This document shows positions 32,601-59,140 of a stretch of 64,000 nucleotides of DNA, piece by piece. The translations under genes and the position numbers were made by a program. Origin of the DNA: an uncultured Acidobacteriota bacterium (GTDB lineage: Bacteria > Acidobacteriota > Thermoanaerobaculia > Multivoradales > UBA5704). A model generated the notes under the pieces. That model was not told where the DNA came from. It did no database searches and was given only the letters and a program-made list of their open reading frames with translations. The stretch is taken from contig CAVYRF010000001.1 of assembly GCA_963770895.1 (NCBI GenBank), positions 1,984,001 through 2,048,000 of the forward strand. The letters run 5' to 3'. Each line of letters begins with the position of its first letter. Within the stretch, counting starts at the first letter, position 1.

Positions 32601-35600
32601 CGGCGCCGGCGCCATCGCCGGCATCTGCGCCCAACGGTCGCCGGCGATGATCGTCGCGCTGCTCGCGGTCCTCAAGGCCGGCGGCGCCTATCTGCCGCTC
32701 GATCCGGGGTACCCGCCCGAGCGCCTGGCCTTCATGGCCGCCGACGCCGGCATCGCGGTGCTGCTGCACGACGCCGCCGCGGCGCCCGGCGGGCGCCTGG
32801 GCGGCCTCGCCCCTGGGGCCGCGCGGTTCGATCTCGCGGGTCTCCCCGAGCTTCGGCAGCTCCAGGATCTCCGGGGCCTCCCGCAACCCGACGCGCCGGC
32901 GCCGGCGGACGACGACGGCGGCGGCGCGGCGAGCGCCGCCTACGTCATCTACACCTCGGGCTCGACCGGCACGCCCAAGGGCGTGGTGGTGTCGCACGGC
33001 GCGATCTGCAACCACATGGCGTGGACCCTGCGCATCCTGGCGCCGGATGCGCGGGACGCCGTGCTGCAGCGCACCACCGCCAGCTTTGACGCCTCGGTGT
33101 GGGAGATCTTCCTGCCGCTGTGGAGCGGCGCGCGGCTGGTGCTCCTCGACGCTGCCGCGCAGGGCGACGCCGACCGCATGCTGCAAGCGATCGCCGTCCA
33201 CGGCGTCACCATCCTGCAGACCGTGCCGTCGCTGCTCGCCCTGCTCTGCGACCGGCCGCGCCTCCAGGAGCACTGCCGGTCGCTGCGCCGGGTGATCTGC
33301 GGCGGCGAAACGCTCACCACAGACATCGCCAGCCGCTTCGAGCGCCAGCTGGGCGCGCCGCACGGCCCCCGGCTGCTCAACTTCTACGGCCCGACCGAGG
33401 CGGCGGTCGACGCCTCCTGGTGGCCCTGCCAGCCCGGCGACGCGAGCGAGCGCGGCATGCCCATCGGACGGCCGATCGACAACCTCGACGTCGCGGTGCT
33501 CGACGCCACCGGGCGGATGGCGCCGATCGGCGCCATCGGCGAGCTGCACCTGGGCGGCGCCGGCCTGGCGCGCGGCTACCTGGCGCGCCCCGAGCTCACC
33601 GCGGCGCGCTTCGTCCCCGATCCGCGCCAGCGCCGCGCCGGCGGCCGCCTCTATCGTACCGGCGACCTGGCCCGCTTCCGCGCCGGCGGCCAGCTGGAGT
33701 ATTGCGGCCGCACCGATCACCAGGTGAAGGTGCGCGGCTTCCGCATCGAAACGGGTGAGATCGAGGCGGCCCTGCTGGCGCTGCCGGGCGTCGAGCAGGC
33801 GGCGGTGGCGGTCGTCGCGGCGGCGACGGGCGATCGCCGCCTGGTCGCCTACGTCGCGGCGCCGCCGGACGCCGCGCCGCCGGACCCCGCGGCGTTGCGC
33901 GCCGAGCTGCGCCGCCGGCTGCCCGAGTTCATGGTGCCGGCGGCCTGGGTCACCCTGCCGCGGCTGCCGCGCACCGCACAAGGCAAGCTCGACCGCCAGG
34001 CCCTGGCGCGGATCGCGCCGCGGCCGGGCGCGGTGCTGTCGGGATCGCCAGCGTCGGGAGAGCCGCTGGAGCCGTGGGCGCCGGGCGGCGCGCTGCCGCG
34101 CAGCCCCGGCGAGGAGCTGATCGCCGGCGTGTGGCAGGAGGTGCTGAGCCTGGGCGACGCGCGTCCCGGCCCCGGCGACAACTTCTTCGAGCTGGGCGGC
34201 CACTCGCTGCTCGCCACGCAGGTGGTGTCGCGGCTCGCCGCGATGCTGCACGTCGACCTGCCGGTGGCGACGGTGTTCGAGTCGCCGACCCTGGCGGCCT
34301 TCGCCGCGGCGGTCGAAACGGCGCGCGGCGCGCGGCCGCGGCCGGCGATCCCGCGCGCGCCGCGCCGGGCGCCGCTGCCGCTCTCCTACGCGCAGGAGCG
34401 GCTGTGGTTCCTCGACCGCTTGCAGCCGGGCCAGGCCACCTACAACATGCCGGTCGCCTTCGCCGCCCGCGGCCACCTGGCGCCCGCCATCCTGGATGCC
34501 GCGCTGGGAGAGGTGCTGCGGCGCCACGAAGCGCTGCGCACCCGCTTCGTCGAGTTGGGCGACCGGCCCATGCAGCACTTCGACCCACCGCGGCCGCCGC
34601 GCCTGCCGCTGGTCGACCTGGCCGCGCTGCCCGGCGGGCGGCGGGCCGCCGAGGGCTTGCGCATCGCCCGCGCCGAGGCCGGCCGCCCCTTCGACCTGGC
34701 CGCCGGACCGCTGCTTCGCGGCCTGCTGGTGCGCCGCGGCGGCCCGGCGGAGCCCGCCGCCGCGGAGCACGTGGTGCTGCTCAACGTGCACCACATCGTC
34801 TCCGACGGCTGGTCGATGGGGGTGCTGGTGGCGGAGATCGGCGCCCTCTACCGGGCGGCGATCGCCGGCGCGCCCAGCCCGCTGCCGGAGCTGCCGGTGC
34901 AGTACGCCGACTTCGCGGTCTGGCAACGCGGCTGGCTGGACGAGGCGGAGCTGGGCCGCCAGCTGGCCTGGTGGCGCCAGCGCCTGACCGGCGCGCCGGC
35001 GGCGGTCGAGCTGCCCACCGACCGCCCGCGGCCGATGGCGCAGAGCGGCCGCGGCGGCCTGGCGCGGCTGCACCTGGGAGCGGCGGCGACGGCGGCGCTG
35101 GCGGCGGCCGGGCGCCGGCGCGGCGTCACCCTCTTCATGGCGCTCTTCGCCGGCTGCGCCGCCCTGCTGGCCCGCCTGGGCCGGCAGGAAGACCTGGTGG
35201 TGGGGACGCCGATCGCCAACCGCCACCACCTCGAAACCGAGCGCATGATCGGCTTCTTCGTCAACAGCCTGGCGCTGCGCTGCAACCTGGGCGGCGACCC
35301 GACGACCGCAGAGCTGTTCGGGCGCGTGCGGGAGACGGCGCTGGCCGCCTACGCGCACCAGGACCTGCCGTTCGAACGCCTGGTGGCGGAGCTGCGGCCC
35401 GAGCGGCTGCTCAGCCAGAACCCGATCTTCCAGGTGATGTGCGCCCTGCAGAACGCCCCCCTGGGGGCGCTCGACCTGCCCGGTCTGGACCTGGCGCCGC
35501 TGGCGCTCTCGGCCCCCACCGCCAAGTTCGATCTGGCGCTGTCGTGGAGCGAGCAGCCGGACGCCGGCGGGGCGCTGGCGTGCGAGCTGCGCTATGCCGC

Positions 35601-38600
35601 CGACCTGTTCGACGCGCCGACCGCGGCCCGCCTGCTGGGTCACCTGCGCGAGCTGCTGGCCGGGCTCGCCGCGCAACCCGGCCGGCGCGTCGCGGAGCTG
35701 CCGCTGCTGGGCGCCGCCGAGCGCCATCAGGTGCTGTGCGAATGGAACGCCTCGACCTGGCAGACCGGCGGCGGCGACCCGACGCTGTTGCAGCTGGTGC
35801 ATGCGCCGTTCGAGCGTCAGGCGGCGCGGGAGCCGGCGGCCGAAGCGGTGGTGGACGGCGACAGGACGGTTTCCTACGGCGAGCTGGCGGCGCTGGCGCG
35901 GCGCGCGGCGGCGCGCCTGCGCGCCGCGGGAGTGGGGCCGGACCGGCCGGTGGCGCTGTGCGCCTGGCCCTCGATCGAGCTGGTGGCGGCGCTCTTCGGC
36001 ATCCTGCGGGCGGGCGGCGCCTACCTGCCGCTCGACCCGGCCCACCCGCGCGAGCGGCTGGCGCAGGTGCTCGCCGACTCGGGAGCGGCGGTGGTGGTGG
36101 CGGAACCGGCCACCATCGACCGCCTGCCGCCGGCGGTGCGGCCCATGCTGCTGGCGCAGCTCGTCGCCGATCCCGACCCGGCGGACGGCTCGGCACCGGC
36201 GCCGGCACCGGGCTCACCTCCGGCGCCGGCGTTGCCGGCGGCGCTGGAGGACGTCCAGCCGGACCATGCCGCCTACGTGCTCTACACCTCGGGCTCGACC
36301 GGCATGCCCAAGGGCGTCGTCGTGTCCCACCGCGCGGTGTGCAACCGCCTGCGCTTCCAGGTGGAGGCGGACCTGGCGCCGGGCGCCCGCGTGCTGCAGC
36401 GGACGCGCCTGGGCTTCGACGTGTCGGTGATCGAGCTGTTCGCGCCGCTGTGGGCCGGAGCGGTGCTGGTGGTGGCGCCGCCGGCGCAGGCGCAGGACGC
36501 CGCCAGCCTGGCGCGCCTGGTCGTGGCGCAGCGCATCACCAACCTGACGGCGCCGCCGGGGCTCTTTCCGGCGCTCCTGGCGGAACCGGCGTTCTGCCGC
36601 TCCGGCTCGTTGCGCCGCCTGGTGACGGGCGGCGACAGGGTGCCTGCCGACCTGGCGCGGCGCCTTGCCGACGCCTTCGACGCGGCGCCGGTGCCGCCGC
36701 AGCTGTGGTCGCGCTACGGCCCGACCGAAGCCACCGTCTCGGTGAGCGAATGGGACTGCCGCCTGCCGGCCTCCGGCCCCACGGTGCCGCTCGGCCGGCC
36801 GCTCGCCGGCGCCCGCCTGTACGTGGTGGACCGCGCCCTCCAGCCGGTGCCGCCGGGAGTGCCGGGCGAGCTGTGCATCGCCGGCGTCTGCCTGGCGCGC
36901 GGCTATCACGGCCGCCCGGACCTCACCGCGGCGGCGTTCGTGCCCGACCCGCACGGCGCCGGCCCGAGGGCAGGCGGCAGGCTCTATCGCACCGGCGACC
37001 TGGTGCGCCGGCGCTCCGACGGGGTGGTGGAGTTCCTGGGCCGCCTCGACTGGCAGGTCAAGGTGCGCGGCTTCCGCATCGAAACCGGAGAGATCGAAAG
37101 CGTGCTCGCCGGCCATCCGGCGGTGCGCCAGGTGGTCGTGGTCGCCGTGGCGGAGGGCGGCGCCGCCGCCGACGCGGACGGGGCGCAGCAGCAGCTGGTC
37201 GCCTACGTCGTGCCTCGCGCTCAGGATGCCGGCGCTGGGGGGGAGCGCACGTTGCCATCCGCCGTCGCCGCCGTCACCGCCGTCACCGCGGACGAGCACG
37301 TCGCCGCCTGGAACGCGCTCTACGAAGAGGTGCATCCGCACCAGGAGACGGGCGATCCCGCGCTCGACTTCGCGGGCTGGAACAGCAGCTACGACGGCGC
37401 CCCCATCCCGGTCGCGGAGATGCGGGAGTGGGCCGACGCCGCGGCCCGGCTGGTGCTGTCGCTGGCGCCGCGGCGGCCCAGGGTGGTGGAGGTGGGCTGC
37501 GGCGCCGGCCTGCTGCTGCTGCGCGTGGCGCCGCACTGCGCCAGCTACCAGGGGGTCGACTTCTCGCGCTCGACGCTCGCCGTCCTGGCGGGCCGCCTGG
37601 CGCGGCCGGGCCACGAGCTGCCGCAGGTGACCCTGACCCACGCGCCGGCCGACCGCTGGCAGCCGCACGCGGAGGCGGGCGGCGGCGCTCGCCATGCGGA
37701 CCTGGTGATCCTCAACTCGGTCGTGCAGTACTTCCCGAGCGTCGACTACCTGCTCCAGGTGCTCCGCCATGCCGCCGCCGTCGTCGTGCCGGGCGGCAGG
37801 ATCTTCCTGGGCGACGTGCGCAGCCTCGACCTGGCCGAAGCGCTCTACACCTCGATCGAGCTCGCCGCGGCGCCCGACGACCTGGCGGTGGAGGAGCTGC
37901 GCCGGCGCGTTCTGGCGCGGCGCGACGACGACGAGGAGCTGCTGCTGGCGCCGCGCTTCTGGCACGCCCTGCGCCGCCACCTGCCGGCCGTGTCGCACGT
38001 CGATCTGCGGGTCAAGCGGGGGCGCGCGATCAACGAGCTGAGCGGCTACCGCTACGATGTGGTGCTGACGCTGGGGGGCCAGGTCGCCGCTGCTGGGCTG
38101 CCCCCCGAGCTCCTGGTGTTCGATGCCACCGCCGCGGCGTTCAACCTGGAGGTGGTCGGCGAACGCCTGGCCGCCGCCGCAGGTGCGCCCGCGGCCGACG
38201 CCGCGACGGCCGTGGTCGAGATCCAGGGCCTCCTCGACCGGCGCCTGGCGGCCGAGGCCGCGGCCATCGCCCTGCTGGCCCAGCCCGAGTCGGAACCGTG
38301 GACCGTGGGCGAGCTGCGCCGGGCGCTCGCGGCGCGGCTGGCGCGCGAACCGGGCGTGTCCGGCGAAGACGTCTGGCAGCTGGGCGCCAGCCTGGGCTAC
38401 CAGGTCGAGCTGCTGGCGGGCGGCGCCGACAGCGCGGGAGGCTTCCGCTTCACGGCGCGGCTGCGGCGTCCGGGTCAGGCCGCTGCCGCGGCGGCGCCGC
38501 CCGCCATCGCGGCGAGCGCCGCCATCGCCGCGAGCGGCACCAGCGCCGCCAGCGGTGTGAGCGGCGCCACCGCCGCGGTGGAGCAGGAGCCGGGCGCCCT

Positions 38601-43410: not shown

Positions 43411-43688
43411 GCCGCAGGCCGGATGCGCTGGGCCGCACGATAAGGCGTCCCTGCGCCCACCCGATCTCCTTCGAGTCTCCTGCCTCGCGCGCACTGCGGC
43501 CCCCGTGCGCTTCGCACCCCTGCCGATAGCGCCCACCCCATCCGCCTGCCCCACCCAGGGGAATTTGCCCACGCGACCGCGCACTCGCCAAACCCTGATC
43601 CCGCGGTGCGCGCTCCGGCAACAGCCAGCCCCGCGGACATGAATCGGACCGGTTTGCTCGTCCTCAACCCACCCCTGGCGCTGGCCTC
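43411..43688 (+). repeat. Dispersed structured repeat, copy 1
   Basis: TAAGGCGTCCCTGCGCCCACCCGATCTCCTTCGAG...GTGCGCTTCGCACCCCTGCCGATAGC...CAGGGGAATTTGCCCAC...CTCGCCAAACCCTGA...; shared with copies 2-4. Confidence 0.92.
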
Positions 43689-43689
43689 A

Positions 43690-43832
43690 TGGCCGGCGCG
43701 GCCGACGACGGATAGCTCGACGCGGGTGCCGGCCTGGTCGGTCTTGCTACGCCGCATGCGGAACCCACCCTCGACCGGCACCAGGTCCTCGACACGCGCC
43801 GCGGCGACCTCGGAAGGCTCGCGGCCGAGCCA
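43690..43832 (-). pseudogene. Tyrosine recombinase (Cre-like) fragment
   Basis: Reads LGREPSEVAAARVEDLVPVEGGFRMRRSKTDQAG; RRSKTDQ is characteristic of Cre-like integrases. Confidence 0.6.
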
Positions 43833-45730: not shown

Positions 45731-45826
45731 AGGCCGCTATGGGCTGGGCTGCAGCTTAAGGCGTCCCTGCGCCCACCCGATCTCCTTCGAGTCTCCTGCC
45801 TCGCGCGCACCGCGGCCCCCGTGCGC
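45731..45826 (+). repeat. Dispersed structured repeat, copy 2 (5' part only)
   Basis: Matches copies 1, 3 and 4 up to CCCCCGTGCGC. Confidence 0.9.
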
Positions 45827-47615: not shown

Positions 47616-48857
47616 TTAGGACGTGCTGCGCTCTTCCGTGTCCTGGGCGGCGGCTTCAGTGCTCACCTGTGGCACCGGCTTCCATCGCTCGTCCAGCTGA
47701 TCCCAGGAGATCTCCCATACCGGCTCGCCCAGCCCACGACCAGCGATGTAAAGGCCGCTGTGGCCGGCGGCGACGGAAAGGCGGCGGTTGCCCGAGGAGA
47801 TTTCGCCCAGCAGCACGCGGTTCAGCTGTTGGGCGGTATGGTCCCAGCAGTCCACGGCCAGTCCCTGAGAGGTCTCCACCACGAGATAGACGCGGTTACC
47901 CTGTGCGGTCATGCCGCGTACCACCCGCACCGCCTGCGAGGCACCCAGCGCAGCGCGGTCGAGCTTGATCCCTTCGGCCTGCGCCCGCTTTTCCATTGCT
48001 TGCCACTCGTCCGCGGAGCGTTCAGCCCAGCGCACCTGGCCGCCGCCCACCGTCACCGACTCCTTGACAGCGCCGGCGGCTGAATACATCTTCAGCGCGT
48101 AGGCATTTTGCTGTGCTACCCAGATCGCACCGTCGCGGCCGGCTGTAAGCCGAGTGTCGCGTTCGGCCTTGGTTTTGAGGAACGAGCCGGGGGAAGGGAG
48201 ATCCGTGCTTTTGTTCTGGTCAAAGCGCAGCGATGGCTGCACTGCCAGGGTTCGCCAGCCCTGATCGTCGAACTGCAAAAGCAACGGTGGCGTGTCCCAG
48301 GTCGGGTCCTTGAAGTTCGAGGATGCGCCGGCGTTCCGGTTGCTGTCGCGCGCCGGTACCACCGCCACGACAGGACCGCTTCTGGTATACGTCAGCGCCG
48401 AAATCATCCAGCCCGCCGCCGGCACTGGCCGGCGTTCGTTACCCCGCAACAGCGATAGATGGCCGTCCGGCGCACTTTCCAGGAGCCAAGCATCGCCGTC
48501 CGGGCTCATCGCCGCATCAGCCACCCAATCCACCGCCACTGCACCCCCGGCAGGCACCGCAGCATGCGCAACCACGATCTTGCCAGAAGGCAGGATCTGG
48601 TCGATCTGCAGGCGATCGCCATGCAGCAGAAAGACCCGCCCTTCGGTGTCCGCCTGCATGAACTGCAACGCCTGGTTGTTTTCAAGCGCCGGATCGCCAC
48701 CGATCTTGACCGGCGCCACACGGTGAAACGAACCCGCGGCTCCCGAGTCCGTGGCTCCCACCGCGGGGAGGGCGATCAGCAGCAACCCGAACCCTATCCT
48801 TGTCCACCCAATGGTGCTGTTCTGGCAGCGCACAGGACGATCGCTCTGTTTATTCAT
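47616..48857 (-). CDS. Secreted protein family B, copy 1 (probable beta-propeller)
   Basis: Signal-like GFGLLLIALPAVGA; aligns along its length with 57375-58517. Confidence 0.8.
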   Translation of the reverse strand: MNKQSDRPVRCQNSTIGWTRIGFGLLLIALPAVGATDSGAAGSFHRVAPVKIGGDPALENNQALQFMQADTEGRVFLLHGDRLQIDQILPSGKIVVAHAAVPAGGAVAVDWVADAAMSPDGDAWLLESAPDGHLSLLRGNERRPVPAAGWMISALTYTRSGPVVAVVPARDSNRNAGASSNFKDPTWDTPPLLLQFDDQGWRTLAVQPSLRFDQNKSTDLPSPGSFLKTKAERDTRLTAGRDGAIWVAQQNAYALKMYSAAGAVKESVTVGGGQVRWAERSADEWQAMEKRAQAEGIKLDRAALGASQAVRVVRGMTAQGNRVYLVVETSQGLAVDCWDHTAQQLNRVLLGEISSGNRRLSVAAGHSGLYIAGRGLGEPVWEISWDQLDERWKPVPQVSTEAAAQDTEERSTS

Positions 48858-48867
48858 ATGGGGCCAG

Positions 48868-49147
48868 AGGCTAGGCCTAAAAGAGCGGCTTACCGTCCGC
48901 GGTTGCGTCCTGCACGGGCTTCCAATGCGCAACCGCCAGGGGTTTTCAACGGGAATCCGCCAAATCCCATCTGTTGCGAGCCGCCCACCAAGCCAGAGCT
49001 GATCCGGCGCCACCGCGGCTCAGCCGCCCGGTTGTTCCCTATAGGTTGTGTTGCCGCAAGGCGCAAATTACGGACATGGCCTCGGCGAGCGGCTGTGCGC
49101 TCAGATCGTTGCGCTGGGGTGGGCCGCAGGCCGCAATATGTGCTGGG
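48868..49147. repeat. Deleted duplicate of the B2 locus (3' end of B2 joined to its upstream region)
   Basis: 48868-49012 matches 57366-57508; 49011-49147 matches ~58641-58781. Confidence 0.9.
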
Positions 49148-49368
49148 TGAGAGCGGTCGCGGTAAACGATGGAAGGCGGGCGTTGGTTGATCAAGATAAG
49201 CGATGGTCGTGGGGTGGCGACCATCAAGTAGCGTGATCGGCAGGGTAGGTCAGCATCATCGGCGCCCGCAGGGCGCCATCCGCTCAAAACAAGGAAGCCC
49301 TCCAGGGGTTGACGCCACCCCCGGAGGGCTTGTCTGCTTTCGTTGTCGACGCGAAAGGAGACGATCCC

Positions 49369-49953
49369 TTGTACCAGACCTTGCTGCGAGATTCCAGCTT
49401 GTTCGAGCTACTGCTGCGCTTCGACGCCGATCTGGCGGCAATGGTTCGCGAGGGCGGATGCGCCGTCTGCGGAGGGGCGCTGCACAGCGCTCGCTACCGG
49501 CGCAAGCCACGGGGCGGTCCCCTGGGGCTCGGGGCCGAGTACGCCTTGCGGCAGAGCTTCTGCTGCGCCACCGAGGGCTGCCGGCGGCGAGCGACGCCAC
49601 CGTCGGTACGGTTCCTCGGCCGCAAGGTGTTCTTCGGTCTCTGGGTGCTGCTGCTGCCGGTGCTTCGGGAAGGGCCGACAGCCGAGCGCCTGCACCGTCT
49701 GGAGGAGGTTTTTAGAGTGAGCCGGCGGACCCTGTTGCGCTGGCGGCGGTGGTGGCGCGAGGTCGTGCCACGGAGCCGATTCTGGCAGTCGCGGCGCGGC
49801 GACTGGGCTTCGCCAGTGCCGCCGGCGGCGCTACCGAGCTCCCTGCTGGCCGGGTTCGAGCACCTTGCCGGGATCGCCGAGCAGGCGTTGTCGGCGCTGC
49901 GCTGGCTGGCGCCGCTCGGCGCCACCGGCAGCTTCTTGGATCACGCTCGGTGA
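49369..49953 (+). CDS. Transposon accessory Zn-ribbon/HTH protein (DUF6431-like)
   Basis: RBS AAAGGAG + TTG; CAVC and CCATEGC; VSRRTLLRWRRWW. Confidence 0.75.
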   Translation: MYQTLLRDSSLFELLLRFDADLAAMVREGGCAVCGGALHSARYRRKPRGGPLGLGAEYALRQSFCCATEGCRRRATPPSVRFLGRKVFFGLWVLLLPVLREGPTAERLHRLEEVFRVSRRTLLRWRRWWREVVPRSRFWQSRRGDWASPVPPAALPSSLLAGFEHLAGIAEQALSALRWLAPLGATGSFLDHAR

Positions 49954-50061
49954 GGTCCGACGCCGACCCGCAGAAGATGCGTCTGGCGGTCGTCGGGCAA
50001 CCGCCGTAGCCTCGGCTTCGCCGGCGAGAAACCCCAGGACGCCGGTTCCGGGAGGCGCGCG

Positions 50062-51516
50062 ATGCCGCACGAGCACGAGGTGCGCTCTCACGAGCGCTGG
50101 GCGCATCTGCGCTTTGCTGTTGTCGGGCCGCTGCTGGCCTCGCCGCCGGCAGCCGGCGAGCTCCAGACGGAGCTGTCCCGTCTGGCGTCGAGACTCTGGC
50201 AGCATCCGGTCTCCGGTCAGCCGGTGCGCTTTGCCGTCTCGACGATCGAGCGCTGGTACTACCAGGCCCGACACGGCAACGACCCGGTGGCCGTCTTGCG
50301 CCGCAAGATCCGCAGCGACAGCGGCCAGCAGCAGGCCCTCAGCGCTGAGCTCGGAGAGGCGCTGCGACGCCAGCATGCAGCCCATCCGAGCTGGAGCTAC
50401 CAGCTGCACCTCGACAATCTGGCCGTCCTGGTCGCCGAGCAGTCGAACTGGGGTCCACTGCCGTCCTACGCCAGCCTGCGGCGCTACATGGTGGTGCATG
50501 GCTGGCTGCGACGCCGGCGAGTGCCGCGTGGCCAGCGCCCGGGAGAGCGCCTGGCCGAAGAGCGCCGAGAGGCGCGCGAGACGCGCAGCTACGAGGCTGA
50601 GTACGTCGGCGGCCTCTGGCATCTGGACTTCCATCACGGATCGCTGAAGATCCTCAATGCGCAGGGCGAGTGGGTGCAGCCGGTGCTGCTGGCGATCCTC
50701 GACGATCGATCGCGACTGCTCTGCCACGCCCAGTGGTATCTGAGCGAAACCGCCGCGAGTCTGGTGCACGGCCTGGTGCAGGCCTTTCAAAAGCGCGGTC
50801 TGCCGCGGGCGCTGCTGACCGACAACGGCGGCCCGATGCTTGCGGCCGAAACCACCCAAGGTCTACAACGCCTCGCCGTCGTCCACTCCACCACGCTCTC
50901 GTACTCCCCGCATCAGAACGGCAAGCAAGAGGTGTTCTGGGTGCAGGTCGAAGGCCGGCTGCTGGCCATGCTCGAAGATCAGCCTGACCTGACGCTGGGC
51001 CTGCTCAACGAGGCCACGCTCGCCTGGGTGGAGATGGAGTACCAGCGGACCCGGCACTCCGAGACCGGCCAGGCCCCGCTGACGCGCTGGCTCGATGGCC
51101 CCACGGTGATCCGTCCTTGTCCAGAGACCAACGACCTCCGCTTCGCCTTCACCGCTGCGGCCGAACGCACTCAGCGTCAGAGCGACGGCACCCTCAGCCT
51201 CGACGGCACCCGCTTCGAGGTCCCCGGCCGCTTTCGCCACCTGCGGCGGCTGGCGCTACGGTATGCGAGCTGGGATCTGCGCTCGGTCTGGCTCGTCGAC
51301 CCACGCACCGGCGTCGCTCTCGAGCGGCTCTATCCTCTCGACCGCACCCGAAACTCCGAGGGCGTAAGACGCCCGCTCGCACCGCCGTCGCTACCGACCG
51401 CGGAGATCACTGCCCAGCCCGGCGGCATCGCGCCGCTGCTGCGCCAGCTCATGGCCGACTACGCCGCCACCGGCCTGCCTCCCGCTTACATCGCCTACGA
51501 CGAGGAGCACACATGA
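50062..51516 (+). CDS. DDE transposase (rve integrase core, IS481/Mu-like)
   Basis: N-terminal HTH STIERWYY; LWHLDFH, LLTDNG, NGKQEVFW. Confidence 0.93.
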   Translation: MPHEHEVRSHERWAHLRFAVVGPLLASPPAAGELQTELSRLASRLWQHPVSGQPVRFAVSTIERWYYQARHGNDPVAVLRRKIRSDSGQQQALSAELGEALRRQHAAHPSWSYQLHLDNLAVLVAEQSNWGPLPSYASLRRYMVVHGWLRRRRVPRGQRPGERLAEERREARETRSYEAEYVGGLWHLDFHHGSLKILNAQGEWVQPVLLAILDDRSRLLCHAQWYLSETAASLVHGLVQAFQKRGLPRALLTDNGGPMLAAETTQGLQRLAVVHSTTLSYSPHQNGKQEVFWVQVEGRLLAMLEDQPDLTLGLLNEATLAWVEMEYQRTRHSETGQAPLTRWLDGPTVIRPCPETNDLRFAFTAAAERTQRQSDGTLSLDGTRFEVPGRFRHLRRLALRYASWDLRSVWLVDPRTGVALERLYPLDRTRNSEGVRRPLAPPSLPTAEITAQPGGIAPLLRQLMADYAATGLPPAYIAYDEEHT

Positions 51517-52373
51517 TGACCCGCAACCTGCTGGCCCTATTCGGCGTCAAGTGGAATCCGTTCTCACCCGACATTCCGATCGAGGCGCTTTGGCGCACCC
51601 CCAAGATCGAGCACTTCTGCTGGCGGCTCGAAAACCTGGCGCGCGAGGGCGGCTTCGCCCTGATCACCGGCGATCCCGGAACGGGCAAGTCCGTCGCCCT
51701 CCGCGCTCTCGCCCACCATCTCGCCGCGCTGCCCGACGTCACCATCGGTGTCCTCAGCCGGCCGCAGAGCGCTCTCGGTGACTTCTACCGCGAGATGGGA
51801 CAGCTCTTCGGCCTCGCGCTCTCTCCCCACAACCGCTGGGGCGGCTTCAAGATCCTCCGGGAAAGCTGGCTTGCCCACGTCGAAGCCACCCGCTGCCGCC
51901 CCGTGCTGCTCGTCGACGAAGCTCAGGAGATGCCCGCTGCCGTCCTCGCCGAAATCCGCATCCTTGCCGCCACCGAGTTTGATTCGCGCTCGATCCTCAC
52001 CGTCGTGCTCTGCGGCGACAGCCGCCTAACGCAACAATTCCGCAGTGATGAGCTGCTGCCCATCGCCAGCCGCATCCGCGCTCGCTTGACGCTCGACTAT
52101 CTCACTCCCAAGGAGCTGCTCGATTGGCTCCAGCACGCCCTCGCCCAGGCCGGCAATCCCCAGCTGCTCACCTCCGAGGTCAAGACCACCTTGGCCGAAC
52201 ACGCGGCCGGCAACCTGCGCGTCCTCACCACCCTGGGCAATGAGCTGCTCGCACTCGCCGCTCACCGACAGCTCGCCCAGATCGATCAAAAACTCTATCT
52301 CGAAGTCTTCGCCTCGCAACCCCGACCCAAACTCAAAGCCCAAACCCCAGGCAGCAAGCACCCTCGCGCCTGA
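51513..52373 (+). CDS. ExeA-like AAA+ transposition ATPase
   Basis: Walker A GDPGTGKS, Walker B LLVDEAQ; ATGA overlap. Confidence 0.92.
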   Translation: MMTRNLLALFGVKWNPFSPDIPIEALWRTPKIEHFCWRLENLAREGGFALITGDPGTGKSVALRALAHHLAALPDVTIGVLSRPQSALGDFYREMGQLFGLALSPHNRWGGFKILRESWLAHVEATRCRPVLLVDEAQEMPAAVLAEIRILAATEFDSRSILTVVLCGDSRLTQQFRSDELLPIASRIRARLTLDYLTPKELLDWLQHALAQAGNPQLLTSEVKTTLAEHAAGNLRVLTTLGNELLALAAHRQLAQIDQKLYLEVFASQPRPKLKAQTPGSKHPRA

Positions 52374-52416
52374 ACCTTGGCCGGCTCTCGGCTCTCCCGC
52401 CTTCCCGAGAACCACC

Positions 52417-52764
52417 ATGCTCGCTGACGCCTATATCCGCTGCATACTCGACCTCTACCGCAGCACTCCCGATACCCCGGGGCGTGCCCGCCCCGCCGAC
52501 CGCCAACTCGCCGCCTCACTCCACCAACTCGAAATCCCTCTCGATCTTGTCGCCGCCGCGCTCGTCCTTGCCACCGCCCGGCGCAGACACCGCCATCCCC
52601 AAACTCCGCCTCTTCGCCCAATACGCTCGCTTCACTACTTTCTGCCCGTCATCGACGAGCTGATCAACGATCCGCCTCCACGCGCATATTGCGACTACCT
52701 CCGCCGAAGGCTCGAAACCTCTGCCCCCAAACTCATCGCCACGATCGACCATCAAATACCATGA
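52417..52764 (+). CDS. Small transposon-encoded hypothetical protein
   Basis: MLADAYIRCILDLYRSTPDTP..PIRSLHYFLPVIDEL; ends inside the right-end repeats. Confidence 0.65.
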   Translation: MLADAYIRCILDLYRSTPDTPGRARPADRQLAASLHQLEIPLDLVAAALVLATARRRHRHPQTPPLRPIRSLHYFLPVIDELINDPPPRAYCDYLRRRLETSAPKLIATIDHQIP

Positions 52765-52797
52765 CCGAACCGCCATCAAATACCGCGACCGCTCTCA

Positions 52798-53058
52798 CTG
52801 GGCCGCAGCTTAAGGCGTCCCTGCGCCCGCCCGATCTCCTTCGAGTTTCTTGCCTCGCGCGCACCGCGGCCCCCGTGCGCTTCGCACCCCTGCCGATAGC
52901 GGCCACTCCATCCATCTGCCCTACCAGGGGAATTTGCCCACTCGACCGCGCACTCGCCAAACCCTGAGCCCGCGGTGCGCGCTCGCGCAACAGCCACCCC
53001 TTCGGACACGAACCGGACCGGTTTGCTCCTCCTCACCCTACCCCTGGCGCTGGCCTCC
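52798..53058 (+). repeat. Dispersed structured repeat, copy 3 (its first ~25 bp, 49123-49147, split off by the transposon)
   Basis: Collinear with copies 1 and 4. Confidence 0.92.
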
Positions 53059-53366
53059 CCGCCAGAACGTCACCGGCGTCGCCGACCAGACAGGAACCAG
53101 TTGCCACGCGGCAGGCTGCGCCCCCGCTACCTGCCTGCCGTAGCCCCCGCTAGCCCGGATCAGATATCCGCAAAATGGAAACTTCTTGGCAAAACCGGGG
53201 CACTGCTGGGCATTCCAGGTAACCGACATTGCGCAAGCAAAGTGTTGGCGTAAAATCACCGGCGCTGACAGCGACAACGAATGTTTCCTCGAACGGCGAC
53301 AGCCCCGCATGGGCGACCCAAAAATCTTCTGATGGTGACCACAAACCCGATTGCCGAGGTGCCCTG

Positions 53367-55040
53367 ATGCCCAGGCCCGTTCCGTCGCCGCTCGCGATCG
53401 CCCTCACCTGGTTGCGCGAGCGCTCGGCCTGGACCCAGCGGGATCTCGCGTTGGCAGTCGGCGGGAGCTCGGTCAGTATCAGCAAGTACGAGAACGGTCA
53501 GCAGACGCTGAAACGTGAGCGGCTCGACCAGCTGGCAGCCGCCCTGGGCTACGGCCTTGCCGACGTCGATCTAGCGCTTCTCACCGTCACCGCGCTCGAC
53601 CCCGCCGCCGCAGCTACGCCCCAGGCCACTCACCCCCAACTGACCAGCCGCCAACACGGGGTCAGGGTTCGGCTCACCAAGTACGAGAGGGGCCAACGGC
53701 CGCTGAAGCGTGAGCGGCTCGATCAGCTGGCAGCCACCCTGGGCCACGACCCTGCCGACGTCGATCTGGCGCTCCTCACCATAGCCGCGCTCGACCCTAC
53801 CGCCGCGGCCGCGCCGCAGGCTCCACTGGAACATCCGGGCGCCATTCCCCCCCTGCTGGCCCGCCTCAGCCGCCGGGCCGGGGTCCGCTTTGCCATCGAA
53901 GCCGCCACTCTGGCCCAGTCATGCTGGCAGCCTCAGCTGGCCGCCCGTCGCATCGCCCAGGACCGAGCCCAGGCCGGCGACCTGTGGCAGCAGCTGGCGC
54001 GCGTCACCCCCGCGCAGCGCCGCCTCCTGGTCGAGCGCACCCTGGAGTTCCAAGGCTGGGCGCTCGCCGAGCGCCTGGCCGAGGAGAGCCGGCGTGCTGC
54101 GCCCAAGAACGCCGCTACCGCGCTGGAGCTGGCGCAGCTCGCCGTGGCGGCGGCCCGTCGCGCCGGCGGGTCCGACGCCTGGCTCAGCCGTCTGGAGGGC
54201 TACATCCGGGCGTTCCTGGCCAACGCCCTGCGTGTCCAGGGGAGCCTGTCCAGCGCCGGCGCCGAGTGGCAGACCGTCTGGCGCCTCTGGCACGCCGGCA
54301 CCGCGGGCGACCCCGCCGCCGTGCTACCGGAGTGGCGCCTGCTCGACCTGGAGGCTTCCCTGCGTCGCGATGCGCGCCAGTTTGCCGCCGCCCTGGACCT
54401 ACTCGATCGCGCCGCCGCGGCGGCTCCCAGCTCCGCAGCGGGGCGTATCTTGGTGAATCGCGCTTCGACCCTGGAACAGGCGGGCGACCTTCGGGGCGCC
54501 GTGGCCACGTTGCGGCAAGCTGAACCTATCGTTAATGAGACGCGCGAGCCGCGTCTGCAATGGCTGCTTGCGTTCAATTTCAGCGTCAACCTCTGTCATC
54601 TCGGTGGCTTCGCCGAGGCGGCATTGCAGCTGCCCAAGCTGCGGCAGCTCACGCTCAACCTCGGCAATGACTTGGACCTGGTGCGCGTCGTTTGGTTGAG
54701 CGGTCGTGTTGCGGCCGGCATGGGCAGCAGGCAGGATGCATGCGTCGCCTTTGAGGAAGTGCGGGACCAGCTGGCGGCGCGCCGCGATGGCTTCGGCACC
54801 GCCATGGTATCGCTTGAGCTGGCAGTTCTCTACTTGGAAGACGGGCGTCTTGGCGAGGTGCGCCGCCTCGCCATGCAGATGAGCTGGATCCTCGCCGCCG
54901 AGGGATTGGAGCGCGAGGTCCTCGCCGGCCTGCAGCTCTTCTGCGAGGCGGCCCGCCGCGAGGCCGCCACGATCGAGCAAGCGCGCACGGTGCTGTGCCA
55001 GCTTGGCCCCGCACCCCATTTTGGCGCCGGTGCGCTGTGA
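53367..55040 (+). CDS. XRE-HTH + TPR-like regulator 1
   Basis: WLRERSAWTQRDLA..SISKYENG HTH; helical repeat C-terminal region (WRLLDLEASLRRD, LGNDLDLVRVVWLSGR); RBS GAGG. Confidence 0.88.
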   Translation: MPRPVPSPLAIALTWLRERSAWTQRDLALAVGGSSVSISKYENGQQTLKRERLDQLAAALGYGLADVDLALLTVTALDPAAAATPQATHPQLTSRQHGVRVRLTKYERGQRPLKRERLDQLAATLGHDPADVDLALLTIAALDPTAAAAPQAPLEHPGAIPPLLARLSRRAGVRFAIEAATLAQSCWQPQLAARRIAQDRAQAGDLWQQLARVTPAQRRLLVERTLEFQGWALAERLAEESRRAAPKNAATALELAQLAVAAARRAGGSDAWLSRLEGYIRAFLANALRVQGSLSSAGAEWQTVWRLWHAGTAGDPAAVLPEWRLLDLEASLRRDARQFAAALDLLDRAAAAAPSSAAGRILVNRASTLEQAGDLRGAVATLRQAEPIVNETREPRLQWLLAFNFSVNLCHLGGFAEAALQLPKLRQLTLNLGNDLDLVRVVWLSGRVAAGMGSRQDACVAFEEVRDQLAARRDGFGTAMVSLELAVLYLEDGRLGEVRRLAMQMSWILAAEGLEREVLAGLQLFCEAARREAATIEQARTVLCQLGPAPHFGAGAL

Positions 55041-55113
55041 AGCACCCAGCCCGAGCGGCGGAGTTCACGTCTACTCTCACTGCTGACCCGCTGCAACAGG
55101 CGATACCGCCCGT

Positions 55114-55330
55114 TCAGTGCGGCGTAACTACGTTCGTGCAACGCCCATCAGGTGGCGGGCGGCGTGACCGCGTTGATGCAGCGCCCATCTGGATCCGCCG
55201 TGCAGGTTGCTTGCGGCTTAACCACGTTCGTGCAGAGGCCGTTCGGGTCTCCCGTGCAAGTTGCCTGCGGCTTAACCGCGCTCGTGCAGAGGCTGCTCGG
55301 GTCCATTCCGCAGGTGGCCTGCGGCCTCAC
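55114..55330 (-). repeat. 54-bp coding tandem repeat (three full units, one deleted unit, short tail)
   Basis: Units start at 55330, 55276, 55222 and 55168. Confidence 0.9.
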
Positions 55331-55573
55331 CCGCGAGGGCGAGCGCCGCAGTGGCAGTTGGGCGCTGCTGGAGGGCCGCCCCGCCCACGGCCAAATTGCG
55401 CTCAGCCACCGGCCCAACTGGGCCACGACATCGACACCAGGGCCACCTGGGGAGCCAGGAAAGCTGAGGCCGGCAGCCGAAGTGGCTGCTACGGAGCTGG
55501 ATACGTTCGTCCAACCTGCCACAGCAAGGACGGCGGCCGCGACGGCAATGCGACGGGGGATTCTTGGACGCAT
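55148..55573 (-). CDS. Secreted multi-core peptide precursor with 18-aa C-x2-DP-x2-x-C repeats
   Basis: Signal peptide MRPRIPRRIAVAAAVLAVAG..; amphipathic LGRWLSAIWPW; three complete repeats plus a frameshifted fourth. Confidence 0.85.
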   Translation of the reverse strand: MRPRIPRRIAVAAAVLAVAGWTNVSSSVAATSAAGLSFPGSPGGPGVDVVAQLGRWLSAIWPWAGRPSSSAQLPLRRSPSRVRPQATCGMDPSSLCTSAVKPQATCTGDPNGLCTNVVKPQATCTADPDGRCINAVTPPAT

Positions 55574-55639
55574 AGGGAAGTCCTTTCGTGGGGCGCTGCC
55601 GCTCGCGGCCGGAATTGGCCGGGGGCGGCCCGCGTCCCT

Positions 55640-55686
55640 GACAATCCGCTGCCGGTACGATTGTCGAGGTTAAAAATATACTTTTT
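55640..55686. promoter_or_regulatory. Candidate operators in the divergent peptide/regulator intergenic region
   Basis: GACAATC-N12-GATTGTC (55640-55665) and AAAAA-tatac-TTTTT (55672-55686). Confidence 0.5.
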
Positions 55687-55721
55687 CCGAGTACGGTATT
55701 CACGCGGGGAGGATTGCACGC

Positions 55722-57239
55722 ATGGCATCGCCAGGGCTTGACGACCAAGGGTTGCTTCTCCAGTGGCTGCGCGCAGTCCGGGGCTGGGACCAAAGCCAGC
55801 TTGGAGCGGCGGTCGGCATCTCGCAAGCCTCGATCTCTCGCTACGAGAAAGGAGAGGTGCCAGTACGGCCAGAAGCGCTGGAGCGCATCACCGCCGCCGT
55901 AGGACTGCCGGTCTGGTTCGTGAAGCGCTACTTGGTGCCCGTTTTTCGTGCCACCCGCAGTCTTTCGGCGACCGTGGCGACCAGCCCCTCATCGGGTGCC
56001 CACCCCCCGCTTGCCCAAGACCATAAACCCCTCGACGGGGGCGTCCTGGAGGCGGCTCTACGCGCGATGCTTGACGGGGCGCTGGCCGAGGTCGAGGCGG
56101 CGGCCATAGCTGCGGCAAACCAGAGAAGCACCCCCCGGCCCTTGCCGTCGCCGCGCGACCGCGAGGACGCCGCGCGCGCCTGGGACCGTCTGGCGCCCTG
56201 CGCCGCGGCTGACCGCCAATGGCTGGTTGAGCGGTGCGCCGAGTTCCACCTGTGGGCGCTGGCCGAGCGGCTCTGTGACGAGAGCGCGCGAGCGGCGCCC
56301 CAAGAGGCGGCAGCAGCCCTCGACCTGGCCCGCCTCGCCCTTACCGTGGCGCAGCGCACCGGCGGTGCTGAGCCCTGGCGCCGGCGCTTGCAAGGTTACG
56401 CGCGGGCCTTCCTGGCCAACGTATTGCGCGTCACCGGTGAGCTGGTGGCGGCCGGAGCTGAATTCGCAAAGGCTTGGGAGCTGTGGCGCTCCAGCGGCGA
56501 GGGCGACCCCGCCGGCCTGCTGGAAGAGTGGCGCCTGCTCGACCTGGAAGCCTCCCTGCGGCGCGACGCCCGGCAATTCCACGACGCGCTCGATCTGTTG
56601 GAGCGCGCCGCGGCCGTAGCGCCGCCGCGCGCCCTTGGCGGCATCCTGCTCAACAAGGCGTCCACCCTGGAGCAGGCAGGCGACCCGGCGGGCGCTCTCG
56701 CCGTCCTGCGGCAGGCCGCGCCGCTGGTCGCGAGCAGCGACGCACCCCGCCTGCACTGGATATTGGACTTCAACCTGTGCGTCAACCTCTGCCATCTCCG
56801 CCAATTCGCCGAGGCCGAGGCACAGCTGCCGCGCCTCCGCCAGCTCGCCCTGGACCTGGGCAACGACCTGGACCTGGTGCGTGTCGTCTGGCTGAGCGGC
56901 CGCACGGCCGCGGGCTCCGGCCGCCGCGCCGAGGCGTGCGCCGCCTTCGAGCAGGTGCGCGGGGAGCTCACGATCAGGAAGGACGCCTTCGGCACCGCCA
57001 TGGTCTCGCTGGAGCTGGCGCAGCTCTACCTGGACGAGGGCCGCACCGCCGAAGTGCGCGAGCTCGCCGCGGAAATGGCGTGGGTCCTTGCCGCCAAAGG
57101 CCTGGAGCGCGAAGCGTTGGCCGCCCTGCGCCTGTTCTGCGATGCCGCCCAGCGTGAGGCGGCGACCCTCGATCAGGTGCGGCGGGTGCTGGGCCAGCTG
57201 GAGCGCACCGCCGTCCTGCCGCGTCCCGCCGCTCTCTGA
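55722..57239 (+). CDS. XRE-HTH + TPR-like regulator 2
   Basis: WLRAVRGWDQSQLGAAVGISQASISRYEKG; paralog of regulator 1; RBS GGAGG. Confidence 0.9.
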   Translation: MASPGLDDQGLLLQWLRAVRGWDQSQLGAAVGISQASISRYEKGEVPVRPEALERITAAVGLPVWFVKRYLVPVFRATRSLSATVATSPSSGAHPPLAQDHKPLDGGVLEAALRAMLDGALAEVEAAAIAAANQRSTPRPLPSPRDREDAARAWDRLAPCAAADRQWLVERCAEFHLWALAERLCDESARAAPQEAAAALDLARLALTVAQRTGGAEPWRRRLQGYARAFLANVLRVTGELVAAGAEFAKAWELWRSSGEGDPAGLLEEWRLLDLEASLRRDARQFHDALDLLERAAAVAPPRALGGILLNKASTLEQAGDPAGALAVLRQAAPLVASSDAPRLHWILDFNLCVNLCHLRQFAEAEAQLPRLRQLALDLGNDLDLVRVVWLSGRTAAGSGRRAEACAAFEQVRGELTIRKDAFGTAMVSLELAQLYLDEGRTAEVRELAAEMAWVLAAKGLEREALAALRLFCDAAQREAATLDQVRRVLGQLERTAVLPRPAAL

Positions 57240-57374: not shown

Positions 57375-58517
57375 CTAGAAGAGCGGCTTACCGTCCGCGG
57401 TTGCGTCCTGCACGGGCTTCCAATGCGCAACCGCCAGGGTTTCAACGGGAATCCGCCAAATCCCGTCTGCTGCGAGCCGTCCACCAAGCCAGAGCTGATC
57501 CGGCGCCAGCGCGGCCGACATGGGGCCGGATGAAACCGTCACTCCTTCGAGCAACACCCGCTCCAAAGTGTTCTGCGAAGGGTTGAAGCGGTCCAGGGCC
57601 ATCCCTTCGGGGCTGGAAACCACCAGGTAGACATAACCATCCCGGCCGCAGACCAGAGCCCGTACGACCCCACGGGCAATCCCAGCAGGGGATTCGGGTG
57701 AGGCGGCGCGGTTCGCACCTTGCGCTGCGCGGTTCCGCCATTCCCGTTCCTGATCCTGCTTTCCAAGCTTCTGCCACTGCAGGTCACCGCTGCCAACCAC
57801 GATTTCATGCTCGGGGGTCTCGGACGAAGAGGAGAGCTTCTGCAAGCGATAGCTGTTCTGCGAAGCGCTCCAGAGCGCCCCACCTTGGCCTGCGCACAGG
57901 AGCGTCTCCGTCTGCGCCCTACCTGCAGCCATCATCTCGAAGGCGCTTGCAGGCTTCTCTTTGAACTGGACAATTGGAGCCGAGACGACGGGCTGCCAGC
58001 GTCCATTCGTGAGAGCGAAAACCCGCGGGACCGTTTTCTTGAAACGATCTGCAGCGTCAGGGGGAGGCCCCAGCGATGTGACGCTGACCAGGGGACCAGA
58101 GGCTGAATAGGCCGCGGAAGAGATGACCCATCGAAGATCGGGAAAGCTCTCTTGCCTGCTGAAATCGCACACCGCCACTTCGCGGGGCGAACTCACGACC
58201 CAGGTCTGTCCTGCCGGATCCTTGGCGGCGGCATAGGCGGGAGCCAGCTGGTGGTCGCAAGCCAGCACACCCAGGCGATGGTCGAAACCTTCATCGGCTC
58301 CCAGGCCGAAAACTTCAAAGGAATCTCCGCGCAGGAGCCAGGGCCGCCCTTGGACATCCGTGGCAAGAAACTGCGTCGTCTCGGCCTTTTCGAGGGCAGG
58401 CGCCGCGACCCGGAGCACTCGCACCCTGGCATACCCAGAAGCATCCTTTGGGGACTGTGGGAGGGCTGCCGCAGGGAGCACCAAGAATATGAAAAAACTA
58501 GCGCTTACGATTCGCAT
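57375..58517 (-). CDS. Secreted protein family B, copy 2
   Basis: Signal peptide MRIVSASFFIFLVLPAAA; shares W.IS...Y..SGP.V.V, G..GA.W.A.QN.Y.L, VVR...VYLVV...L.RVLL with B1. Confidence 0.83.
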   Translation of the reverse strand: MRIVSASFFIFLVLPAAALPQSPKDASGYARVRVLRVAAPALEKAETTQFLATDVQGRPWLLRGDSFEVFGLGADEGFDHRLGVLACDHQLAPAYAAAKDPAGQTWVVSSPREVAVCDFSRQESFPDLRWVISSAAYSASGPLVSVTSLGPPPDAADRFKKTVPRVFALTNGRWQPVVSAPIVQFKEKPASAFEMMAAGRAQTETLLCAGQGGALWSASQNSYRLQKLSSSSETPEHEIVVGSGDLQWQKLGKQDQEREWRNRAAQGANRAASPESPAGIARGVVRALVCGRDGYVYLVVSSPEGMALDRFNPSQNTLERVLLEGVTVSSGPMSAALAPDQLWLGGRLAADGIWRIPVETLAVAHWKPVQDATADGKPLF

Positions 58518-58756
58518 ACGTGTCACCTTGCCTCATGCCTATTTTTGGATCTCCTATCGAAAGAGGTGCGGGTAGTCCCTGGGGCCAATGCTGCCGGCGC
58601 TATCAGTCACGAAGCCGTGAAGTCATGGCTTCGCGCCGCACACCGCGACCCGGCCGCCCGGTTGTTCCCTATATGCAGTGTTGCCGCAAGGCGCAAATTA
58701 CGGACAGGGGCGGCTCGCGGCGAGTGGCTGTGTGCTCAGATCGTTGCGCTGGGTGG

Positions 58757-59048
58757 GCCGCAGGCCGCAATATGTGCTGGGCTGCAGGTTAAGGCGTTCC
58801 AGGCGCCCACCCGATCTCCTTCGAATCTCTTGCCTCGCGCGCACCGCGGCCCCCGTGCGCTTCGCACCCCTGCCGATAGCGCCCGCTCCAGCCATCTGCC
58901 GCACCAGGGGAATTTGCCCACTCGACCGCGCACTCGCCAAACCCTGAGCCCGCGGTGCGCGCTCGGGCGACAGCCAGCCCTGCGGACATGAACCAGACCG
59001 GCTTGCTCCTCCTCGCGCTACCCCTGCCGCTGGCCCCCCGGCCAGAAC
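58757..59048 (+). repeat. Dispersed structured repeat, copy 4
   Basis: Collinear with copies 1 and 3. Confidence 0.92.
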
Positions 59049-59140
59049 TTGACCGCCGGCGCCGATCCGATTGCCGCCCGTCGCCGCGTGCGCGCGACGA
59101 CGGGCGGAATCACTCGGCCAACGGCGGCGGCGCCGGCGGC

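Follow-up and report, generated by a model that had tools for sequence, protein, structure and literature searches.

A recurrent regulator-peptide gene cassette of Thermoanaerobaculia with features of RRNPP-like peptide sensing

Introduction

Can a bacterium with two membranes sense its own exported peptides through receptors inside the cell? The question is raised by a locus of an uncultured Acidobacteriota bacterium of the class Thermoanaerobaculia (assembly GCA_963770895.1; 8.16 Mb in three contigs). The locus lies in the 64,000-nt stretch of contig CAVYRF010000001.1 (positions 1,984,001 to 2,048,000) that was analyzed here and is referred to as the window. A small gene for a propeptide with an export-type N-terminus (the peptide gene; 55148-55573, reverse strand, 141 aa) is flanked by two genes for regulators with an XRE-type helix-turn-helix (HTH) domain and tetratricopeptide repeats (TPR): reg1 (53367-55040, forward strand, 557 aa) and reg2 (55722-57239, forward strand, 505 aa). 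reg1 is convergent with the peptide gene (gap 55041-55147, 107 nt), and reg2 is divergent from it across an intergenic region of 148 nt (55574-55721). An earlier interpretation of the letters and open reading frames (ORFs) alone, here called the sequence-only reading, had proposed that these genes form a peptide-signalling system analogous to RRNPP quorum sensing. The layout that it described agrees with the ORF coordinates, and its view of the flanking genes as paralogous HTH and helical-repeat proteins is borne out by the ORFs, the domain matches and 56% identity between reg1 and reg2 over reg2 residues 36-493.

The literature passages used for this work report peptide signalling by way of cytoplasmic TPR receptors from Bacillota, their phages and plasmids only (PMC10075063, PMC9765709). 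The matches of an RRNPPA survey are reported there from Firmicutes, nearly all of them Bacilli (PMC9765709), and known pheromones are characterized as short, unmodified peptides (PMC12998947). A literature search, with supplementary files outside its reach, found no description of the present cassette, of peptide signalling in Thermoanaerobaculia, of RRNPPA systems with Acidobacteriota or of DUF6799 (see below). The analysis described here identifies reg1 and the peptide gene as one copy of a two-gene cassette. We consider the chances about even that this lineage-specific, greatly expanded Thermoanaerobaculia cassette represents an independent RRNPP-like system of peptide sensing.

Linkage and geometry across genomes

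Lack of a conserved linkage of regulator and peptide genes across genomes had been named in the sequence-only reading among the grounds for refuting the proposal, and the linkage was found to be near-obligate. A profile of nine paralogous peptides matched 42 of 61 genomes at E<=0.01, the source genome included. Among the family genomes 33 of 36 were matched, with up to 19 matches per genome; the three without a match all belong to one genus and are 91-95% complete. When loci were centred on the peptide, a regulator homolog was present within 1.5 kb in all 30 best loci (29 from other genomes and one from the source genome), and within the same distance in 20 of 20 loci of two further genomes. 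By an arithmetic estimate, about 3% of the source genome lies within 1.5 kb of a regulator match. A sample of 400 genomes of the phylum yielded peptide matches in just the two that belong to the same family; its sensitivity is low because 11 candidates were scored per genome.

The reverse search, in which an alignment of 16 closer regulators was run against one genome per species, gave 60 loci. All are from metagenome-assembled genomes (MAGs) titled Thermoanaerobaculia, Thermoanaerobaculaceae, Thermoanaerobaculum or Acidobacteriota, in agreement with the high-GC, diderm host expected from the sequence-only reading. The peptide gene was found in 53 of these loci. Among the other seven, three (L091, L105, L106) have too little DNA after the regulator, two (L137, L138) are weak partial matches without a real regulator, and two (L111, L126) are regulator loci that apparently truly lack a peptide gene.

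The geometry of the pair is fixed. For 61 peptide ORFs detected at E<=1e-8 in the regulator-centred loci, the 3' end of a convergent regulator lies within 400 nt of the peptide stop in 60 cases (median 54 nt), the sole exception (L135) being an alternative-frame artefact. The start of a divergent regulator lies within 400 nt of the peptide start in 42 of the 61 (median about 150 nt). Several loci are arrays in which regulator and peptide genes alternate (reg-pep-reg-pep). This convergent geometry and the arrays indicate that the conserved unit is a regulator followed by a convergent peptide gene, and thus that reg1 is, by position, the likelier cognate partner in the window. reg2 opens a second unit that lacks its own peptide gene, and it shares the promoter region of the window's peptide gene. 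Both flanking regulators had been taken as parts of the system; the conserved partner is the convergent one, the divergent one being a less constant companion. The arrangement seen in the window recurs in the genome and in the family well above chance.

The neighbours of 58 of the 60 regulator loci were clustered, with crude ORF picking. Just regulators, peptides, spurious antisense ORFs and one small helical protein (23 of 58 loci) were recovered. The small helical protein is mostly of about 85-160 aa (two are of 220-300 aa), and carries the motif TE[IL]RxVIxCVLxDxIxPAIxDLxxAAxY. In most of the loci L085, L093, L094, L095, L099, L104, L106, L110, L112, L118, L120, L128, L129 and L136, its gene is on the strand opposite to a regulator and no more than about 700 nt upstream of it. 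It is absent from the window, and a tblastn search with one representative did not find it in the source genome.

Cassette copies in the source genome

The cassette is expanded in the source genome, where 61 matches to reg2 were counted. Three paralogs of the peptide gene (C2:1901580, C2:5556236 and C2:3839137; contig and position) are each located between a reg1-type and a reg2-type gene. Six more were recovered from gaps between regulator pairs (C2:4269756, C1:516563, C2:495038, C2:505101, C2:502517 and C2:1826441), and the family profile added two (C2:1827020 and C2:365293). The genome has at least 11 further peptide genes, all beside regulator matches, and 12 of 12 listed own-genome matches of the peptide profile (13 were counted) adjoin regulator matches. 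One weak match (C2:3252603) was rejected as chance; it falls inside a large ORF without DPxG, taken by eye as polyphosphate kinase.

A maximum-likelihood tree was built from 26 of the source genome's regulators. In it, the reg2-type genes from the four closest cassettes group in one clade and the reg1-type genes in its sister clade (support 100/98 and 100/100); reg1 falls in the convergent ("conv") and reg2 in the divergent ("div") clade. Both clades share the same internal order; the triad was thus duplicated as a whole unit. For two further cassettes, the regulators on either side are mutually closest, which points to repeated local duplication.

Some regulators depart from this pattern. Four near-identical ones (C2:1905277, C2:1822767, C2:4274699 and C2:5559858; branch lengths about 0.1) have no adjoining peptide gene, and each is a few kb from a cassette. 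One of them, of 697 aa (L145:1122-3215), has the HTH and TPR region followed by a second, C-terminal HTH; ahead of it is an ORF of 208 aa that contains a CPEC motif.

The propeptide and its family

The propeptide of the window begins with a basic and hydrophobic segment, predicted from the translation to resemble a signal peptide (MRPRIPRRIAVAAAVLAVAGWTNVSSSVAA; aa 1-30, 55484-55573, reverse strand). Its hydrophobic maximum is at aa 9-27, and its position is kept in an alignment of 31 family members. An amphipathic Trp segment follows (VDVVAQLGRWLSAIWPW; 55385-55435, reverse strand; family consensus LxxLWxWLxxxW). In the family alignment this helix directly abuts the first core in most relatives and is the best-conserved element outside the cores. 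The window gene then encodes three cores on the reverse strand: CGMDPSSLC (core 1, 55286-55312), CTGDPNGLC (core 2, 55232-55258) and CTADPDGRC (core 3, 55178-55204). They are encoded by 54-nt repeat units (family D8), each of 18 residues with a 9-residue Cys-bracketed loop. The signal-like N-terminus, the Trp segment and the tandem variant cores, all described in the sequence-only reading, are thus visible in the translation; the DPxG motif that it assigned to the cores is present in cores 2 and 3, and in core 1 (DPSS) Ser replaces the Gly of the family.

A remnant of a fourth core, DGRCTNVVTPH with a stop (55112-55149, reverse strand), is one base out of frame and extends past the stop codon of the gene, because the last repeat spacing is 40 nt, 14 nt shorter than the usual 54. 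Short-read contigs of three soil metagenome runs show no indel over 55112-55601, so the shortening is a real truncation and not an assembly error. These contigs served for this indel check and for that of the reg1 duplication described below; the parts that they leave uncovered carry no meaning.

Pfam and NCBIfam scans assigned the window peptide to no family, and it did not match PF20606 (DUF6799). A search with the single sequence gave one match only (P0121, 51% identity), so profiles were needed. Run against 1.84 billion cluster representatives, the family profile matched 3,409 proteins at E<=1e-3, of which 972 reach E<=1e-10; almost all are of 100-150 aa, and none is annotated. One short family member, P0122, passes the curated cut-off of DUF6799 (31.1 vs 26.8 bits) over its last core repeats, and weak matches were seen in 2 of 31 aligned family members (best E 0.001). 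DUF6799 has no described function.

From 88 distinct precursors, 220 cores were extracted by anchoring on DP.G; D, P and G are therefore fixed in this set. The motif is conserved as [EANT]-G-C-x-[ILM]-D-P-[NDS]-G-x-C. Cys occupies position -3 in 197 of the 220 cores, with another Cys at +4 to +7 in 190 of the 197. The Cys bridging claimed for the cores thus applies, as a predicted disulfide, to most of them; it is not universal, two paralogs of the source genome ending in a linear ADPYGG. These two (C2:502517-502816 and C2:1826441-1826707, both reverse strand) are propeptides without any Cys whose C-terminal ends read GADPYGG or AADPYGG. Most precursors carry two (38) or three cores (27), others one (10), four (12) or five (1); the closest paralogs of the window gene, in cassettes B and C, have four each. 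At the variable positions, the identity among cores of one precursor is 0.55, and that among cores of different precursors 0.35. Such a distribution, with cores alike within a precursor and diverse between precursors, fits cassette-specific signals.

Five of the best 150 profile matches are long proteins of 669-3,728 aa (P0127, P0132, P0145, P0138 and P0194). Three of these (P0127, P0132 and P0145; 669-783 aa) have a signal peptide, an N-terminal domain and 25-30 mostly Cys-free GxGxDPNG[KR] nonapeptides, followed at the C-terminus by a region of VDEWDxEVVKR repeats; they match no Pfam family. No intact protein of this kind was found with P0127 in 60 relatives, where the matches were at the level of the repeats, mostly short, and several fell on known peptide loci.

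Regulators: domains and predicted fold

Domain searches detected HTH_3 (6.7e-13) and HTH_31 in reg1, and HTH_31 (9.4e-12) and HTH_3 (7e-9) in reg2, both with a sub-threshold match to TPR_12. HTH_3 is present in 87 of 91 members of the regulator family. No clear transmembrane segments were found in the regulators. Their homologs are annotated merely as HTH or TPR proteins of Thermoanaerobaculia; in the ESM Atlas the nearest clusters are hypothetical proteins of Acidobacteriota, with scores of 0.85-0.88 that serve as leads only.

The N-terminus of reg1 agrees with its paralogs. Within it lies an in-frame tandem duplication (53462-53821, forward strand), with 165-nt copies at 53462-53626 and 53657-53821 that are 81% identical, 195 nt apart, and repeat the latter half of the HTH together with the linker that comes after it. 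An independent short-read contig spans 53507-53751 without gaps. Paralogs of the reg1 type are ORFs of 618-834 aa, and extra N-terminal modules are typical of this clade.

An AlphaFold2 model of reg2 (91 sequences, pLDDT 90.7) begins with an HTH, which a long helical linker joins to about eight pairs of helices after residue 146. A Foldseek search with this model against the PDB gave 49 matches at E<=0.001. The TPR domains of LGN/Pins rank first (LGN, E 1.8e-5), RapJ-PhrC (4gyo) is seventh (TMt 0.66), and further down are the Rap of phage phi3T with its pheromone (8rst, TMt 0.61), RapF-PhrF (4i9c, 0.60), RapH and PlcR-PapR7-DNA (3u3w). The modelled fold is compatible with a peptide-binding TPR receptor, and RRNPP membership is not established. 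Prediction of a complex between reg2 residues 140-505 and propeptide residues 31-141 scored 0.00 in two runs, which counts neither for nor against binding.

The shared intergenic region

A ribosome-binding motif (GAAAGGA) is located just upstream of the peptide ATG. The 148-nt region between the peptide gene and reg2 also holds an AT-rich box with A5/T5 arms (CGGAAAAAGTATATTTTTAACCTC; 55666-55689, read on the reverse strand). It lies 93-116 nt upstream of the start codon of the peptide gene and 33-56 nt upstream of that of reg2. In an alignment of the intergenic regions this box is kept in the four closest paralogous cassettes of the genome (W, A, B and C), and AT-rich elements occur at comparable distance in many orthologous loci. 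From its composition and conservation, the box may be a promoter or operator element. Two palindromes had been assigned to this gap in the sequence-only reading; the repeat finder reported no inverted repeat in 55560-55735, and the AT-rich box stands in their place. A scan of 54950-55800 found neither a sigma-70 consensus promoter nor an intrinsic terminator.

Signal, effector or other role

The proposal that the cassette is an independent RRNPP-like sensing system, on which we place an even wager, is based on the one-to-one linkage, the fixed geometry, the duplication of the unit, the many diverse cassettes, the exported multi-core propeptide and its HTH-TPR partner. The presence of peptide-binding TPR domains among the Foldseek matches and regulators without a clear transmembrane segment also speak for it, as do the two genes for Opp/Dpp-type binding proteins in the source genome, the linear C-terminal ADPYGG of two paralogs and the multi-copy propeptides on record for RRNPPA systems. 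In such a system the propeptide would be exported, its Cys pairs oxidised in the periplasm, and the chain cut by proteolysis into loop peptides. A loop peptide would then be released across the outer membrane, be taken up again, and bind the TPR superhelix of the cognate regulator, altering its binding to DNA. Among the targets of the regulator would be the AT-rich box between the peptide gene and reg2, which would make peptide sensing autoregulated; both this operator and the regulon are putative.

Several observations weigh on the other side. The host is diderm, so a loop peptide of 1-2 kDa must cross the outer membrane twice, and its disulfide would be reduced once in the cytoplasm. Neither a transporter nor a protease or Opp gene recurs next to the cassettes in the 58 clustered loci, and the two genes of the source genome for Opp/Dpp-type binding proteins (SBP_bac_5) are both found elsewhere than the cassettes. 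Unrelated TPR proteins (TTC7B, Tom71, APC, OGT and designed CTPR) are scattered among the Rap entries of the Foldseek list, and the PlcR match has a low TM-score (0.22/0.34). A profile of the 91 regulators searched against PDB sequences matched only HTH and generic TPR chains among the best 60 of 130 matches, and the 25 Pfam families (of 29) listed for these regulators include none specific to RRNPP. The occurrence of the DPNG unit in long secreted proteins suggests a structural or binding repeat. The window copy itself is worn, with core 1 lacking its Gly, core 4 frameshifted and a transposon 570 nt upstream.

The DPNG repeats and the envelope also bear on the likeliest of the alternatives, that the peptide is an output and not a signal: the XRE-TPR regulator would sense something else and switch on an exported repeat peptide that acts outside the cell, possibly as a Ca2+- or metal-binding, adhesive, protease-inhibitor-like or antimicrobial disulfide loop. 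We judge this unlikely, though well worth keeping in view. The 25-30 GxGxDPNG[KR] repeats of the long secreted proteins are matched by the core part of the profile, no uptake or processing gene is linked, the envelope is diderm, and most cores carry a predicted disulfide; disulfide loops are typical of extracellular stability. A private TPR regulator for each peptide gene, at least ten cassettes per genome and duplication of the unit would be unusual for a simple effector. Neither an immunity gene nor a transporter or modification gene is conserved nearby, and the cores diverge between cassettes while staying homogeneous within a precursor. The multi-core layout, with a conserved helix immediately before the first core, would suit the precursor of a ribosomally made and post-translationally modified peptide (RiPP), in which the Trp helix would be the leader, genes for tailoring enzymes would lie elsewhere and the pathway would be under the control of the regulators. 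Some known RiPPs carry a Sec signal peptide, the bufferins among them (PMC11626156). This explanation is highly improbable in our view: every enzyme family seen near the cassettes is confined to 6 or fewer of the 58 clustered loci, so the tailoring-enzyme linkage of a RiPP cluster was not found there, and the neighbours differ among the nine regulator clusters of the source genome.

Transport across the outer membrane and uptake would be no problem if the regulator sensed the unexported or periplasmic precursor in cis, as feedback on export or on the envelope, for example through binding of the signal or Trp segment by the TPR domain. The Trp helix, as the best-conserved non-core element, would suit such a role. 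We know of no precedent for cis-sensing of a precursor by such a regulator, the tandem, diversifying cores would be left unexplained, and we hold it very unlikely. A different kind of doubt concerns the window copy alone, which could be in decay and without function, within a family that otherwise works. Besides DPSS in core 1, core 4 has been lost through the 14-nt shortening while paralogs B and C keep four cores, reg1 has its internal duplication, and a transposon and dispersed repeats flank the cassette. Both regulator ORFs, three cores, the signal segment and the helix are intact, the extra N-terminal modules are common to the whole reg1 clade, and the sequence is stable across the soil metagenome contigs; decay is thus a rather improbable account of this copy.

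If the cassette is indeed a peptide-sensing system, a large unannotated family of Acidobacteriota, with thousands of members in metagenomes, would be placed in cell-cell signalling, and peptide signalling through cytoplasmic receptors would reach a dominant, poorly cultivated diderm soil phylum. It would also bring in a new peptide chemistry, that of disulfide-closed DPxG loops cut from precursors with several cores, and raise the question of how such peptides pass the outer membrane. A bolder version, which we put forward tentatively and regard as somewhat doubtful, is that Acidobacteria independently evolved peptide quorum sensing with intracellular receptors. The signals would be oxidised 9-residue Cys-loop DPxG peptides from exported multi-core precursors, released and taken up again across the two membranes by a route left unspecified and each read by its own XRE-TPR regulator, and the ten or more diverse, often arrayed cassettes would form a multi-channel "pherotype" network in soil. 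Even if the peptides are effectors, they are a new and abundant class of regulated secreted peptides.

Genomic surroundings in the window

The cassette had also been suggested to control adjacent genes for secreted proteins or a nonribosomal peptide synthetase, the latter the presumed product of a 5,467-aa ORF (23551-39954) in a stretch of 75-77% GC. No support was found for this, as the recurrent neighbours of the cassettes are only regulators, peptides and the one small helical protein. The 5,467-aa ORF lies more than 13 kb from the cassette, with an MMPL-type gene, unnamed genes and the transposon in between.

A direct repeat of about 450 bp, with copies at 49011-53108 and 58641-59088, encloses a 5.5-kb segment made up of reg1, the peptide gene, reg2 and a gene for a 383-aa protein. 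The right copy is unbroken, and the left copy (49011-49147 and 52818-53108) is interrupted by a 3.65-kb insertion. This transposon-like insertion (49147-52798) has 26-nt inverted ends (49147-49172 and 52773-52798) and encodes a transposase with an rve integrase domain (50062-51516), an AAA_22 ATPase (51519-52373) and an ORF of 115 aa. The insertion occurs again at C2:3309498-3315555, with proteins 99.7-100% identical; there the transposase match is split, its two parts being about 3.3 kb from each other. At its core (58798-59088, also at 43411-43694 and 45731-45826), the flanking repeat is a dispersed element, for which blastn found 25 matches including itself, mostly partial and 72-94% identical, on contigs C1 and C2. 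An Rfam scan of the whole window gave no match.

The 383-aa gene (57375-58526, reverse strand), located 3' of reg2, is unrelated to the cassette; its product has no Pfam family and a hydrophobic, signal-like N-terminus. Paralogs are encoded at C2:972964 (64% identical) and in the window at 47616-49013 (reverse strand, 27% identical). The last 46 codons of the gene are duplicated (48880-49019) and fused before the window paralog, beside the left repeat copy, which suggests a past duplication and deletion.

Comparison with known peptide-signalling systems

The RRNPP analogy drawn in the sequence-only reading stands for the domain architecture, the adjacent exported propeptide and a TPR fold near that of Rap; it does not reach as far as homology to RRNPP families. 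Like those systems, the cassette has a regulator with an N-terminal XRE-type HTH and, in the model, a C-terminal TPR superhelix, and an adjoining gene for an export-type propeptide. Sequence homology was not found, nor was occurrence in Bacillota, the named relatives being all Thermoanaerobaculia/Acidobacteriota MAGs. Propeptides in which the peptide occurs several times are reported for RRNPPA systems in the passages cited (PMC9765709).

In overall plan there is a close likeness to PlcR-PapR and NprR-NprX, which also combine a cytoplasmic XRE-HTH and C-terminal TPR superhelix with an adjoining small gene for an exported propeptide whose active part is C-terminal, as it probably is in the cassette. 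The cassette differs from them in having no detectable sequence homology beyond generic HTH and TPR, in its diderm acidobacterial host, in a peptide gene that is convergent and not co-directional, in cores that are Cys-bracketed DPxG loops, and in an extra helical linker of about 80 aa predicted in the regulator model.

Rap-Phr pairs of Bacillus and of phage phi3T are the best bacterial structural matches of the cassette TPR domain, although eukaryotic LGN/Pins TPR domains outscored Rap in the same Foldseek search. Rap-Phr systems are known for many cassettes per genome, each with a different peptide, and the present cassette shares with them the many paralogous receptor-propeptide pairs. Rap proteins have no HTH and act by protein-protein binding or phosphatase activity. 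The pheromones of PapR, Phr and AimP derive from the C-terminal end of the propeptide, and the linear C-terminal ADPYGG of the two Cys-free paralogs resembles them in this origin.

In Rgg-SHP and PrgX-PrgQ the receptor and peptide genes are on opposite strands with a shared control region, as are reg2 and the peptide gene in the window. The invariant partner in the cassette is the convergent regulator, however, and no homology to these systems was shown. The peptides of the SHP and cCF10 type are short, hydrophobic and linear. On present evidence, the cassette would thus seem to work in the manner of an RRNPP system, yet it stands outside that group by the homology searches made and by taxon.

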